Origin: a virus
Lineage: Duplodnaviria > Caudoviricetes
IMG/VR virus record: IMGVR_UViG_3300027785_000108
Span: 1 to 28,351 of that record
Length of the DNA: 28,351 bases
Strand: one strand, 5' to 3'
Of this stretch, positions 4,156-26,014 are shown one piece after another; the first letter of the stretch is position 1, and every line of letters starts with the position of its first letter. The translations under genes and the position numbers were made by a program. The notes beneath the pieces are model-generated. The model was not told the origin of the DNA. It was given only the letters and a program-made list of their open reading frames with translations, and searched no databases.

Positions 4156-4311
4156 TTATTTGTTTTTTGGTTTATACTCATTGCGATCCCATCCTTTTTT
4201 AACTTTTCCTAATTCTACGGCATACATTCCGAAGAACCACATCGACCATTGATTGAAATTCTCGGGTCTGTCTTTTGGGAATACTGTTTTACTGATTTTA
4301 ATTGTTTTCAT
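4156..4311 (-). CDS. Small hypothetical protein (51 aa)
   Basis: Manual: MKTIKISKTVFPKDRPENFNQWSMWFFGMYAVELGKVKKGWDRNEYKPKNK; AAAAATTATG context; fills the gap. Confidence 0.7.
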   Translation of the reverse strand: MKTIKISKTVFPKDRPENFNQWSMWFFGMYAVELGKVKKGWDRNEYKPKNK

Positions 4312-4351
4312 AATTTTTACTTTTAGTTGTTTATATTTTTAAGATACTTGC

Positions 4352-4540
4352 TTATTTAAAAACAAGTATCTCTTTAACACTGATTAGTGCATTTATTCCA
4401 CCTATTGGAGCATAAGGTTTATCTTCATTCGGTAAATAACCAAATTTATCACCTAATGTAGCAACGTATAAATTACGTTTACCACCTAAACCGAAACCTA
4501 TTGTTTCTCTACCTACTTTTAAAAATTTAATTGCTTTCAT
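4352..4540 (-). CDS. Hypothetical early protein
   Basis: First ORF after the promoter at 4573; CTAAAAATTATG context. Confidence 0.7.
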   Translation of the reverse strand: MKAIKFLKVGRETIGFGLGGKRNLYVATLGDKFGYLPNEDKPYAPIGGINALISVKEILVFK

Positions 4541-4572
4541 AATTTTTAGTATTAATTGCGTTTTGTATATGA

Positions 4573-4580
4573 CAAATATA
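4573..4580 (-). promoter_or_regulatory. -7 promoter element TATATTTG
   Basis: Consensus match downstream of a terminator and upstream of a gene run. Confidence 0.7.
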
Positions 4581-4639
4581 AGTACTCTTTATTGAACTAC
4601 CAAACAATATTCACATTATTTTTAAAATAATTAACAAGC

Positions 4640-4673
4640 AAAAAAATAACTGCCTAGTATTTAGACAGTTATT
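4640..4673 (-). terminator. Intrinsic terminator
   Basis: AATAACTGTCTAA-ATA-CTAGGCAGTTATT followed by T run on the minus strand. Confidence 0.65.
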
Positions 4674-4738
4674 GATAAATTATTTTTTTTGTTGTATATG
4701 CGAGATATAGCGACAATAAGCAAGTTATATGAAATAGC

Positions 4739-5422
4739 CTAACAATTCTCGCTTCGTGCTTCAGATGCCAACGTGGGCAATACTTCACTCCATTGTTCCG
4801 CAATAGCATTCGCAATCCCTTGAAATGTTTTACTTCTTAGTGTTCGTAAATGTTCTGGTGATTTTGATTGTTGTAAACATTCATAAATCCAAGTTGCTTG
4901 TCGTTTCTCCTTACCTGTTTTTTTATCAATCCACGTTTTAAACTCCCCCTTTTCAACTACGTTTGTATGTTTTAACTTTGGTAAGTTTTTCAACCATAAA
5001 CAAGTGCTTTTGCTTGCTTTTTCTCCAAAATGATACGGGTGTACAATTTGGTCAGGTTTTCTAATTTGACTGCTAATCACACTCACTGGATTTTCAATAG
5101 CTATTCTTTCAATAGGTGCATTCATAAGTTTTCGTACAAAATCAAGTGCATCTTCTTGATTATTCTTTCTCGTTTCATTTATGCTTCCATCCTTATTGTA
5201 CATTGCCCATGCACCTGCAACCGATAAATATGTACAAGGTGGGTGAGCGATCATTAAATCCCAACCTTTATTAATCACTTCAAATACATCTTGTTGTAAA
5301 TGCCATTCGGGGTATCCTCCACTGCAAGGAAGTAAATCACAACTAAATGCTTCATGTCCTAATTTTCTAAATGCTTTTGTTATTGCTTGGCTTTCTTCAC
5401 AAGCTACTAATATTCTTGCCAT
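4739..5422 (-). CDS. Short DNA cytosine-C5 methyltransferase-like protein
   Basis: Catalytic-type AHPPCTYL and IENPVS motifs; N-terminal LVACEES, SCDL; C-terminal RSKTFQGIANAIAEQW. Confidence 0.8.
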   Translation of the reverse strand: MARILVACEESQAITKAFRKLGHEAFSCDLLPCSGGYPEWHLQQDVFEVINKGWDLMIAHPPCTYLSVAGAWAMYNKDGSINETRKNNQEDALDFVRKLMNAPIERIAIENPVSVISSQIRKPDQIVHPYHFGEKASKSTCLWLKNLPKLKHTNVVEKGEFKTWIDKKTGKEKRQATWIYECLQQSKSPEHLRTLRSKTFQGIANAIAEQWSEVLPTLASEARSENC

Positions 5423-5459
5423 AATTTACTATGTTTTAAATTTATTTTAGTGGCTACTT

Positions 5460-5536
5460 CATATAACAAGTGTTACAAGATAGTAGCAAGTACTGTGTTT
5501 AATATGCTACCATCGTGTAGCACCATCCGTTATATG
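5460..5536 (+). other. attC-like imperfect palindrome
   Basis: CATATAAC-AA-GTGTTACA-A-GAT-A-GTAGCA-(16 nt)-TGCTAC-C-ATC-G-TGTAGCAC-CATCC-GTTATATG. Confidence 0.7.
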
Positions 5537-5692
5537 CTATTTTTGAAATGACTTAACTACTTCCTTAAATTCACAAATTCGCTCAATTGGAATCAATGCC
5601 TTTACAATCTTTGCGTTGTTTATCTTCGGGCGACCTGCTGAACGGTAGGTAGTTTGTTTCACTTCCTTTATTACTTCTATATTCTGTTTCAT
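5537..5692 (-). CDS. Small putative DNA-binding protein with AGRPK motif (51 aa)
   Basis: Manual: MKQNIEVIKEVKQTTYRSAGRPKINNAKIVKALIPIERICEFKEVVKSFQK; stop codon abuts the cassette junction. Confidence 0.65.
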   Translation of the reverse strand: MKQNIEVIKEVKQTTYRSAGRPKINNAKIVKALIPIERICEFKEVVKSFQK

Positions 5693-5789
5693 TTAATTCT
5701 AGTATTTGTAACTGTTCTTTTTCTTTGTGTGTTCTAAGGCATAGTATTAACACTATGCCTATTGAAGCTCCTATTAATATCTTATACAT
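5583..5789 (-). CDS. Small membrane-anchored hypothetical protein
   Basis: Hydrophobic N-terminus ILIGASIGIVLILCL; 3' half overlaps the 5537-5692 ORF. Confidence 0.45.
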   Translation of the reverse strand: MYKILIGASIGIVLILCLRTHKEKEQLQILELNETEYRSNKGSETNYLPFSRSPEDKQRKDCKGIDSN

Positions 5790-6222
5790 TCTTAATTGAT
5801 ATTGAATTTTTGCTAAACGTTATAATTGGACGTTTAAGTATCTCTCCAGTTGATTCATCTAAACTAGCCAACGATGATAAAGCCACTTGTTTATATTTAT
5901 CTTCAATCTCTTTTAAATTAGCCTTAGCGATTTGATACTCCTCAATATTAGAATAGTCAATCATTCGTCTACCCTCTACTTTAGTAACTTTAAAGTTTCC
6001 AAAGTTAAATGTCTTTTCTGTACGTTTTTCTGCTTCCTCAATTGCTAAAGATTGCACTTCTATTTTAACTTTCTGTGCAAGGTCTTCAATCTCTTTCGCT
6101 TTACCGTACAACTCTAACGGGTTTAACTCACCATTCCTAACCGCTTCAATTAGTATTCCGAAGTAATCTTGCAATGTTGTTGGTGTAACTTCTATTACGC
6201 TTTGTCTTTGTAAATTTTCCAT
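5782..6222 (-). CDS. Hypothetical protein next to ERF gene
   Basis: 146-aa ORF in operon context. Confidence 0.8.
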   Translation of the reverse strand: MENLQRQSVIEVTPTTLQDYFGILIEAVRNGELNPLELYGKAKEIEDLAQKVKIEVQSLAIEEAEKRTEKTFNFGNFKVTKVEGRRMIDYSNIEEYQIAKANLKEIEDKYKQVALSSLASLDESTGEILKRPIITFSKNSISIKNV

Positions 6223-6227
6223 AATTT

Positions 6228-6740
6228 CTATTTGTTTGTTATTTCGTTAATTTCTAAAACTTGCTTAGGTGTTAATGTATAGGCTTTAATTAATTTGTCA
6301 AATACATCTAACTCTAATCCTTCATACCTAGCCACCGCTTTGTCAAATAAAAGGTCTGAGCAAATTGGTAACTGTTTAGGTTGTGGTTGACTTGCTAACT
6401 GCCCATCGTCGTCCATCGCTTGCATAGATAATAAACTTTGTAAAGTATATCTACGATAGTAAGTAATTGCACTACCCATTGCCTGAGGTGTTCCAGTTGT
6501 TGGTAAATCAATAAATGATTCAATTGATTGTTCTGATTCAGCATCTACTATTCTAGTGTAAACTTTCCCATTTTCAATAGGTTGTAATAATATTAAACCC
6601 TTAGATAATAGTATTGGCTCAACTGTTTCAATTAATGCGTTTATATCCGCATAAGTGTTTTTAAAATGTGGGTTAGTTTTTGTTTTTAAAACTTTTCCCA
6701 TTTCTAATTTTGCCTCTAATAATTTTGCGTAGATTTTCAT
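6228..6740 (-). CDS. erf: ERF-family ssDNA annealing protein
   Basis: NPHFKNTYADI, QAMGSAITYYRRYTL and DDDG signatures. Confidence 0.92.
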   Translation of the reverse strand: MKIYAKLLEAKLEMGKVLKTKTNPHFKNTYADINALIETVEPILLSKGLILLQPIENGKVYTRIVDAESEQSIESFIDLPTTGTPQAMGSAITYYRRYTLQSLLSMQAMDDDGQLASQPQPKQLPICSDLLFDKAVARYEGLELDVFDKLIKAYTLTPKQVLEINEITNK

Positions 6741-24749: not shown

Positions 24750-24787
24750 CAAAAATAATCATTTTTATATAATAATATGTAAATTTG
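24750..24787. promoter_or_regulatory. Back-to-back promoters for head operon (-) and portal (+)
   Basis: TATTTTTG on minus 24750-24757; TAAATTTG on plus 24780-24787. Confidence 0.65.
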
Positions 24788-24805
24788 TTAAAAAAATATA
24801 TTTAT

Positions 24806-26014
24806 ATGAATTTTCTTCAAATTTTAGGACAAGGTATTTATAACATCGGAACGAATAGATTTACTAAAACAACTCCTTTACAATATTTTAATCAAAACTA
24901 TTCAACTACCAAAGAGGAGTATGTAAGTATTAATGATAATGAATTCGAGTTATATCGTACAACACCGCAACTTTCGATAGTTATAAATAAAGATGCTCAA
25001 ATGTTGTCAAATGGTCGATTTGTAGTTAAAAATCTTAAGGGTGAAGTACAAGAAAATCATGAAGCTTTAAAATTATTAGCTAATCCTAATCCAGTACAAA
25101 ATCAAAATAGCTGGTTAATGGATTACCAAATACAAAAAAATATCTATGGTAATCAATTTATCTATATTAATAGAGCTTATAATAGTGCTTTTCCTTCCGC
25201 TTTAGTAAATCTTAATAGTGCTTATGTTAAGGTTGTTAAGACTGGTAAATATGTAAAACAAAACAATATTGAGGATATTATAAAACGATATGAAGTAAAA
25301 GAATCGGACGGATCAATTACAACTTATGAAGTAAATGATATTATATTTTCTCAAATAGTTAACCCTAATAACCCTTTAATGGGTTTAAGTCCTTTGCATT
25401 CGTTAACTATGCCTATATCTAATATTCGTGGTGCATACGGATTTAGAAATAAAATAATAGTTAAGTCAGGTGCTTTAGGTATTCTTTCAAGTGCTTCAAA
25501 GGATGCAAGTGGCGGTATTCCATTAAACAATACAGAAAGACAAAGAATAGAACAACAACATTCAAACGATTACGGCATTCATGATGGACAAAGTTCATTA
25601 ATCATGACTGGTTCGCCTTTATCTTGGCAGTCAATGTCTTTTCCAACTAAAGACTTAATGTTGTTTGAAGAAGTAGAAGCGGATTTTAAAAGTATCATTG
25701 ATGCTTACGGACATAATGCTGACATTTACTCAAATCTTAATAATGCGAAGTTTTCAAATATGAATGAAGCTTTAAGACAAACTTATCAAAATAGAATTAT
25801 TCCTGAATCTGAGCAACTTTGCTTTAATTTATCGAATAGATTAGGTTTAACTGCTAAAGGTTTGATATTAGAACTTGACTATTCACATATCGAAGTTATG
25901 AAAGATAACGATAAACAATTAGCTACAAACTTTAAAATGAAAGCAGATGCAATTTCAACGTTATTAAGAAGCGGTTATACTAGAAGTGAGATTGATAAGC
26001 TTGTAACTCTTTAA
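24806..26014 (+). CDS. Portal protein (HK97-like)
   Basis: LLANPNPVQ, YGNQFIY, GLSPLHSL, KFSNMNEA..YQNRIIPE; start moved to ATG 24806. Confidence 0.92.
   Translation: MNFLQILGQGIYNIGTNRFTKTTPLQYFNQNYSTTKEEYVSINDNEFELYRTTPQLSIVINKDAQMLSNGRFVVKNLKGEVQENHEALKLLANPNPVQNQNSWLMDYQIQKNIYGNQFIYINRAYNSAFPSALVNLNSAYVKVVKTGKYVKQNNIEDIIKRYEVKESDGSITTYEVNDIIFSQIVNPNNPLMGLSPLHSLTMPISNIRGAYGFRNKIIVKSGALGILSSASKDASGGIPLNNTERQRIEQQHSNDYGIHDGQSSLIMTGSPLSWQSMSFPTKDLMLFEEVEADFKSIIDAYGHNADIYSNLNNAKFSNMNEALRQTYQNRIIPESEQLCFNLSNRLGLTAKGLILELDYSHIEVMKDNDKQLATNFKMKADAISTLLRSGYTRSEIDKLVTL

Follow-up and report, generated by a model that had tools for sequence, protein, structure and literature searches.

The DNA analysed here (the window) is the whole of the IMG/VR virus record IMGVR_UViG_3300027785_000108, 28,351 bases of a phage of the Caudoviricetes, and the element in question is a unit at positions 4725-5529 that carries a predicted DNA methyltransferase gene and a hairpin resembling the attC recombination site of integron cassettes. 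Read on the gene strand, the locus begins with the stop codon of a 51-amino-acid (aa) open reading frame (ORF), continues through CATATAAC, the hairpin, GTTATATGAAGTAGCC and a leader into the methylase, and then passes through GGCTATTTCATATAAC, a tail of 32 nucleotides (nt) and an A-run to a terminator-like hairpin with a T-run (Table 1). On balance, we interpret 4725-5529 as one predicted-methyltransferase cassette in a slot that holds zero to four cassettes, likely moved at its TAAC/GTTA hairpin by an Xer-like recombinase that the phage does not encode. The unit and its surroundings are best read as an orphan single cassette together with the platform tail of an integron-like system, and not as a classical integron.

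The 227-aa cargo has no sequence match in Pfam, NCBIfam or PDB, and its assignment as a methylase therefore rests on the phrog_757 annotation and on PPC and ENP motifs that were read by eye. The 51-aa ORF upstream ends in QK before its stop codon in the window, and in QKK in those relatives in which the slot is empty.

Table 1. Features of the methylase slot and the Erf gene (window coordinates; L012 is one of the related loci, which carry L numbers throughout)
Feature	Position	Strand	Remarks
Erf protein	6228-6740		Profile/annotation matches
Small upstream ORF, 51 aa	5537..5692	-	TAG stop (5539-5537) abuts first core box
Backbone-side core box, gene strand CATATAAC	5529..5536	-	
attC-like hairpin site	5464..5532	-	TAAC, G + 4-nt bulge, imperfect stem, 16-nt loop, GTTA
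Cassette-start inverted repeat (extended R-box), gene strand GTTATATGAAGTAGCC	5452..5467	-	
Methylase leader	5423..5451	-	Homologous to sequence 5' of non-cassette methylase in L012
Cargo ORF, 227 aa, predicted DNA methyltransferase	4739..5422	-	phrog_757, E 2.2e-62
Cassette-end inverted repeat, gene strand GGCTATTTCATATAAC	4724..4739	-	Overlaps methylase stop codon
Array-closing conserved 32-nt tail, gene strand TTGCTTATTGTCGCTAT...CATATACAAC	4692..4723	-	
Intrinsic-terminator-like hairpin, then T-run	4645..4673	-	Ends operon just after slot; conserved in all relatives
Whole insert vs six empty-slot relatives	4692..5539		Borders ambiguous by 6 nt (TTTTTG at both junctions)

An earlier reading of the locus, made from its letters without database searches (the sequence-only reading), had pointed to repeats and pairings typical of integron cassettes, and its description of them was borne out. 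Direct reading confirmed the 8-mer GTTATATG at 4724-4731 and 5529-5536 on the plus strand, with starts 805 bp apart, and its reverse complement lies at 5460-5467. The count of this 8-mer is on its own weak evidence, five copies being found in the whole window against 1.6 expected, with 2 of 100 shuffles reaching five. The imperfect palindrome with an asymmetric spacer at 5460-5536 consists of an 8-bp outer stem, an internal loop of 2 nt on one side versus 5 nt on the other, and an imperfect inner stem. As DNA it folds with -13.0 kcal/mol on the plus strand (z -3.2; 1 of 200 shuffles as good) and with -14.4 kcal/mol on the minus strand (z -3.7; none of 200 as good). The segment 5452-5467 (GGCTACTTCATATAAC) is, as had been claimed, complementary at 15 of 16 positions to the far end of the unit at 4724-4739, one of these pairs being a G-T wobble on the gene strand, and pairs over only 8 nt across its own hairpin. 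Beyond the 4-nt core, 11 of 12 positions are paired with the cassette's own far end versus 5 of 12 across the hairpin, so that, as in integrons, the R-box of the site is completed by the 5' end of the very cassette to which it belongs.

Classical attC sites have the inverse core RYYYAAC and the core GTTRRRY and form hairpins of about 57-141 nt. The 7-mers ATATAAC and GTTATAT of the window each depart from this consensus at one position, and the hairpin of 69-77 nt, with its unpaired spacer (5 nt versus 2 nt), covarying stem and loop, conforms to the attC plan. The extrahelical L-box bases that mark the bottom strand of an attC site are not present in it: the irregularities of the stem are 1x1 mismatches, and the sole asymmetry of the hairpin is a bulge of 4-5 nt beside the core. 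An Rfam scan of 4300-6000 gave nothing near a gathering score.

The hairpin belongs to a covarying family with members in Flavobacteriales chromosomes and in numerous phages of Flavobacteriia. In an alignment of 19 hairpins, TAAC and GTTA are invariant and compensatory changes are seen in eight of the nine predicted stem pairs. The covariance model R1 has the hairpin of Table 1 as its sole match in the window (48.2 bits, E 3.6e-10) and also finds sites in relatives outside its building set; 123 of its 124 matches end exactly in TAAC...GTTA. The polarity of the hairpin is fixed in phage loci, with the TAAC-G-bulge form on the gene strand in 16 versus 3 cases in one set and 14 versus 0 in another. 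A scan of viral contigs with a 14-base pattern returned mostly chance matches (real hairpins, 15 of 121). The loops are non-random, many long forms possessing ACAGTAC/GTAC-like motifs and short forms CGTTTTAATGGCG. A conserved form of about 130 nt stands nearly unchanged beside different flanks at L058, L070, L096, L117, L141, L142 and L171, and L096 has two copies of it 347 nt apart. At L034 (844-968) and L023 (about 6550-6690), an ORF starts within a large hairpin loop and its frame crosses the 3' arm and the GTTA core.

Across the family, each unit in the relatives has inverted ends of its own, 14-29 nt long, which start with GTTA and finish with TAAC (e.g., L023, L009, L024 and the Polaribacter phage P12002L). 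The sequence-only reading had claimed for the window that the ends of the cassette pair with each other instead of with their neighbours, in the manner of an integron, and this holds well beyond it. With covariance-model matches as boundaries and 12 positions beyond the 4-nt core compared, own-end matches came to 6.79 of 12 in 61 cassettes at other loci, compared with 4.13 for the flanks on either side of one hairpin (n=106) and 4.10 when pairs were drawn at random, the difference between own-end and across-hairpin pairing having a Mann-Whitney p of 3e-8. The methylase cassette of L187 (87% aa identity) has the ends GTTACAGGTAGTAGGG and CCCTATTACCTGTAAC; compared by eye with those of the window, they show double compensatory changes at five of the 12 positions. 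The pairing is nowhere disrupted and the gene-strand G-T wobble is kept, which argues that the pairing of cassette ends is under selection. A hairpin homologous to that of the window lies upstream of this methylase cassette.

The slot itself was followed through related phages by means of the neighbouring 146-aa gene, which recruited 51 related viral loci, 14 of them with both flanking anchors (BLAST). Among these 14, the slot is empty (14 nt) in six and contains 327-2252 nt of other DNA in eight, arranged as one to four units. On the gene strand the plan is xxxxTAAC / G-hairpin / GTTAyyyy - small ORF - y'y'y'y'TAAC / G-hairpin / GTTAzzzz, repeating, and each row of units closes with the tail; L009 and L023 have three to four hairpin sites each. 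The cargo of the relatives includes two different N6_N4 methylases (PF01555; L005 and L023), a YopX protein and small unknown ORFs. The earlier suggestion that phages sample methylases here thus agrees with what is found, since other DNA methylases occupy the same slot in L005 and L023. In L005, L006, L010, L023 and L033-L035, homology to the window ends at 5527-5528, at most 2 nt from the G at 5529, and in L009, L033 and L035 it resumes at 4727-4728; these stops and restarts fall at the cores. Synteny breakpoints, which the sequence-only reading expected at the GTT cores, thus lie there in relatives with other cargo and not in the six empty ones, which are discussed below. The 32-nt tail is also present 3' of unrelated last cassettes in L009 and L033/L035, and in part in L034 and L023. 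It is possibly an attI-like partner site, which remains a guess because the tail motif of the window was not found beside the recombinase genes of other phages.

Freshwater metagenomes, among the sequencing runs of which the stretch is present, provide a further view of the slot. In run X2, a contig of 948 nt represents the occupied form (4656-5603) with no differences, and other contigs of the same run lack 4673-5536 or, with 17 different letters in its place, 4706-5529; a contig of run X3 skips 4685-5540. One short metagenome contig joins a variant of the tail directly to GTTATATG. With the occupied form and skips at several joints all present in run X2, one sample thus contains more than one state of the slot, although contigs of this kind cannot show circles, excision or rates and the variants may be other strains.

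Outside phages, a gapped hairpin pattern matched four genome contigs, all from Bacteroidota assemblies, and R1 matches occur in 23 of 151 sampled Flavobacteriales genomes. Some of the bacterial sites form arrays (six sites in 7.5 kb at L277, five at L290, four or five at L174) in which a hairpin follows every ORF and the ORFs run opposite to the TAAC-G strand, the canonical layout of integrons. Their ends pair at 6-11 of 12 positions with their own partner versus 0-7 of 12 across the hairpin. The cargo comprises a GNAT acetyltransferase, a Gp49/HTH toxin-antitoxin-like pair and an AbiEii-like ATPase, of which the GNAT and Gp49/HTH genes are typical of chromosomal cassettes. In phages, on the other hand, the genes lie on the TAAC-G strand, which supports the proposal of the sequence-only reading that the ORF is inverted with respect to its site; the cassettes are oriented oppositely to those of the bacterial arrays, and the phage operon can therefore read their genes. 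At L279 (235-3303; G065:C2), an RVT_1 reverse transcriptase, a D12 adenine methylase and a 368-aa unknown protein are encoded between an Xer-like recombinase and the first hairpin; they may represent a defence-like module carried as a large first cassette.

One family of tyrosine recombinases is found on the same contig as a hairpin and at most 8 kb from it in 6 of the 23 hairpin-bearing genomes, with identical geometry in five of the six. At L290, the recombinase gene is followed directly by the five cassettes, all co-oriented. The L290 enzyme has 292 aa and its best PDB match is an XerC-like structure; its alignment to the integron integrase 2A3V is split in two, with a gap in which it has 16 residues against 58 in IntI, and it thus lacks the IntI insertion (about 42 residues). 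Its score exceeds the cut-off of NF040815 (222.4 bits against 220) and falls short of that of TIGR02249 (223.1 bits against 265). Relatives of this recombinase are present in 197 viral contig stretches; the best 80 loci were examined, and 41 of these have R1 hairpins. Among the 56 loci in which more than 1.5 kb of upstream sequence is available, the number is 39. The hairpins total 104, and every one of them is upstream of the viral recombinase gene and on its strand, with none downstream (271 kb upstream and 367 kb downstream searched). Taken with the bacterial geometry, this places the enzyme at the tail end of the array in phages and bacteria alike; the equivalent position in the window contains only the tail and the terminator.

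No integron integrase scoring above the TIGR02249 cut-off was found in the 151 Flavobacteriales genomes or in the four hairpin-bearing Bacteroidota assemblies, so that the IntI-like integrase that the sequence-only reading proposed to look for gave way to a linked enzyme of Xer type. Its more general suggestion of a host or distant tyrosine recombinase fits in that the phage lacks an enzyme of its own, and has to be revised in that the linked enzyme is Xer-like, without the IntI insertion. No tyrosine recombinase (PF00589) was matched in the phage record, which CheckV puts at about 84% completeness, nor in five related records, four of which are 94-100% complete. Movement of the cassette would accordingly depend on an enzyme supplied in trans. 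Within the hairpin-bearing assemblies, the best partial IntI matches, at L177 (372 aa) and L281 (524 aa), were rejected as proteins of Xer type that are extended at the N-terminus. Their contigs are short (2,890 nt for L177 and a stretch of 2,470 nt for L281) and contain no hairpin, as judged by reading for L177 and by model search for L281.

The movement of such a cassette can be pictured in several steps: (i) the gene strand would fold as single-stranded DNA; (ii) the enzyme, supplied in trans by the host chromosome or by a co-infecting phage, would cut at the foot of the hairpin, between TAA and C or between G and TTA; (iii) in the excised circle of 805 nt, the two ends of the cassette would together restore a long stem; and (iv) the methylase cargo, once in place, might protect phage DNA from host restriction. 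Whether this amounts to a second, IntI-independent integron, in which an insertion-less Xer-like enzyme shuffles cassettes and services in trans the orphan arrays of enzyme-less virulent phages, so that anti-restriction methylases and early genes are traded among phages and host chromosomes, we regard as evenly balanced. If the mechanism holds, it would mean that the hyperplastic regions of phages from a major group of aquatic bacteria arise through dedicated cassette exchange and not through random illegitimate recombination, that DNA methylases are among the traded goods, and that recombination at a folded single-stranded site is possible without the insertion held to define integron integrases. 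An Xer-like system of this kind would also bear on the origin of integrons from Xer-like enzymes. The sites are easy to model, and arrays and orphan cassettes can therefore be mapped in metagenomes.

Classical integrons share with the unit promoterless single-gene cassettes, folded imperfect hairpins with AAC/GTT cores, a 5' end that completes the cassette's own site, homogeneous sites within arrays, and a recombinase at one array end. They differ in that the enzyme found here is without the IntI insertion, end complementarity extends far beyond 7 nt, the bulge stands beside the core, and the phage genes and recombinase lie on the strand that reads TAAC-G-bulge 5' to 3', the inverse of the bacterial arrays. 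Transposons of the IS200/IS605 type and their miniature derivatives have a subterminal hairpin at each end, and their family includes an HUH (Y1) transposase, in contrast to the single hairpin per unit, inverted ends and linked tyrosine recombinase found here.

The nearest phage precedent is the report of attC clusters without an integrase (CALINs, defined by at least two attC sites lacking an integrase) in virulent phages, including Polaribacter phage P12002L with two methylase cassettes (Qi et al. 2023, PMC9892861, here and below as far as the available part of that text goes). P12002L resembles the window phage as a virulent Flavobacteriaceae phage with DNA-methylase cargo from which an integrase is absent. 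Its hairpin was called attC by HattCI, and its attC2 recombined with attI1 under IntI1 (PMC9892861). In our terms, P12002L_attC1 is a hairpin of the window plan (TAAC G ... GTTA), located at L172 30008-30056, and attC2 is the array tail as defined here. The paper differs in what it covers: two sites, their divergent directions and the IntI1 assay are treated, and the available part does not describe for P12002L the inverted ends of 14-29 nt, an Xer-like recombinase, bacterial counterparts, further sites or a second tail (PMC9892861). In the P12002L sequence (L172), we observed two arrays, at 29150-32290 and 37190-38960, with at least five hairpin-type junctions and the same tail twice, and its methylase and Mom-like cassettes have end repeats of up to 29 nt. 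As regards the enzyme, Smyshlyaev et al. (2021, PMC8138268) noted, in the part of the text available, that the IntI insertion is not conserved across the 'integron-like' subgroup of simple tyrosine recombinases. Sequences related to IntI that lack the insertion have thus already been recorded, with the difference that no arrays, sites or phage link are described for them in that part (PMC8138268). A full-text search, with subscription journals outside its coverage, found no paper on Xer-like-linked hairpin arrays in Bacteroidota or their phages, or on the inverted layout.

The main rival to movement by a dedicated Xer-like recombinase is homologous or microhomology recombination at shared hairpin arms between co-infecting phages (e.g., via Erf), with a dedicated recombinase absent. 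This resembles what has been proposed for the promoter-early stem-loop (PeSL) cassettes of T4-type phages, small accessory genes of hyperplastic regions that have conserved stem-loop flanks and shuffle between phages via homologous recombination at shared promoter sequences. The phage does encode Erf and no tyrosine recombinase, and the hairpins belong to a small number of homogeneous families that recur next to unrelated flanks (in 456 pairs, the hairpin is common to both members and neither flank is). The T-run breaks of the empty relatives, the swap within the end box of L186 and the loose linkage of hairpin and cargo, all described below, also suit such an exchange. It leaves unexplained, however, the cassette-specific inverted ends kept by compensatory changes, the fixed polarity of the sites and the strict placement of arrays by one recombinase family; to our knowledge, PeSL cassettes have neither cassette-specific end pairing nor a linked tyrosine recombinase. 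We give this exchange a minority share of the probability, clearly larger than that of any other alternative. The proposal of the sequence-only reading, that the unit is a classical integron cassette with an attC site served by the IntI of a host, has become very unlikely. It can appeal to the attC-like plan (inverse-core and core boxes, unpaired spacer, imperfect stem, variable loop and an R-box restored by the cassette's own end), and to P12002L, in which the homologous hairpin was called attC by HattCI and the tail was recombined by IntI1 (PMC9892861, available part). It conflicts with the absence of a TIGR02249 match above the cut-off in the genomes and assemblies searched, with the array-linked recombinase that lacks the IntI insertion, with end complementarity of 14-29 nt, well past a 7-nt R-box, with the 4-5-nt bulge by the core in place of extrahelical L-box bases, and with the lack of recombinants from P12002L_attC1 and IntI1 in the same assay (PMC9892861).

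It is also improbable that the hairpin and the end pairing act in RNA, in the processing or stability of the message, and only resemble recombination sites. The folding strand in phages is the transcribed sense strand, the hairpin of the minus strand has a strong RNA fold (z -4.7), and the wobble of the end pairing would be G-U on the message. In bacterial arrays, on the other hand, the same polar hairpins are antisense to the ORFs, which indicates that polarity follows the recombinase end of the array and not transcription, and the presence/absence differences between phages fall at the sites. That the repeats are chance matches in AT-rich DNA is hardly credible: the cassette region does contain several 16-nt inverted pairs at 88% complementarity and the enrichment of the 8-mer is only mild, yet the family-level statistics, the covariation of the stem and the R1 match contradict chance.

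Several observations weigh against a cassette moved by an Xer-like enzyme in trans. The sequence-only reading had predicted an empty site and breakpoints at the GTT cores, and such a site was not seen among the relatives: in the six with an empty slot (L001-L004, L007 and L013), the upstream ORF leads directly into the terminator region, and window positions 5540 and 4691 meet at a TTTTTG T-run that both sides share, away from the GTT cores. These are not the predicted site because the core box and the 32-nt tail are missing. Their breakpoints look like illegitimate or slippage deletion of the whole platform. It had also expected methylase homologues to have the same end complementarity, which was not found in 76 of the 80 closest homologue loci; the scan found end pairs at four (clear at L186, L187 and L247, doubtful at L241), and at L188, one of the 76, a pair with a decayed core was seen by eye. 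L012, moreover, has a 75%-identical methylase gene at the same place, which has neither a hairpin nor inverted ends and is fused to different genes on its downstream side, and together these loci indicate that the methylase gene is mostly not a cassette. L186 carries the same methylase cassette with a different upstream hairpin and 2 nt of the end box swapped, and L005 and L023 have the hairpin in common and different cargo, so that hairpin and cargo are not strictly linked. The pairs informative as to which neighbouring gene a hairpin accompanies, the one before it or the one after it, split 6 versus 2, which does not decide between the two because the hairpin families are homogeneous. With one R1 site only and a tail that is not hairpin-like by R1, the window is not a cluster of the CALIN type. 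No recombinase lies near a hairpin in 17 of the 23 hairpin-bearing genomes, many of whose assemblies are fragmented, and P12002L_attC1, a hairpin of the window plan, gave no recombinants with IntI1 (PMC9892861, available part). Of the claim of a discrete mobile cassette, the discreteness agrees with slot content that differs among close relatives, while we infer its mobility from the comparison of sequences; the action of an enzyme in trans we purely infer, given that the window phage and its five relatives are without a tyrosine recombinase.

As for the phage itself, the record has no end repeats and nearly all of its genes lie on the minus strand. The encoded genes include a primase/helicase, an HNH endonuclease, the Erf annealing protein, an endolysin, structural genes, a portal and a large terminase, and DNA similarity is weak, to Flavobacterium and Cellulophaga phages. 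At 24785-26014 on the plus strand, the portal gene (phrog_2662, E 1e-25) sits between protease and terminase genes of the minus strand, and the guanine-cytosine (GC) skew reverses around it at 25001-26000; the region looks like a local inversion or an assembly quirk. An AT-rich intergenic region at 2400-2640, 3' of the HNH endonuclease and primase/helicase genes, contains a large imperfect inverted repeat with 61-nt arms (2480-2540 and 2556-2616, 72% complementary) and nested repeats, and is possibly an origin or a regulatory region. Directly 3' of the primase/helicase gene, a free-standing NUMOD4 + HNH_3 homing-endonuclease ORF at 1938-2384 on the minus strand represents a further kind of mobile element carried by the phage.

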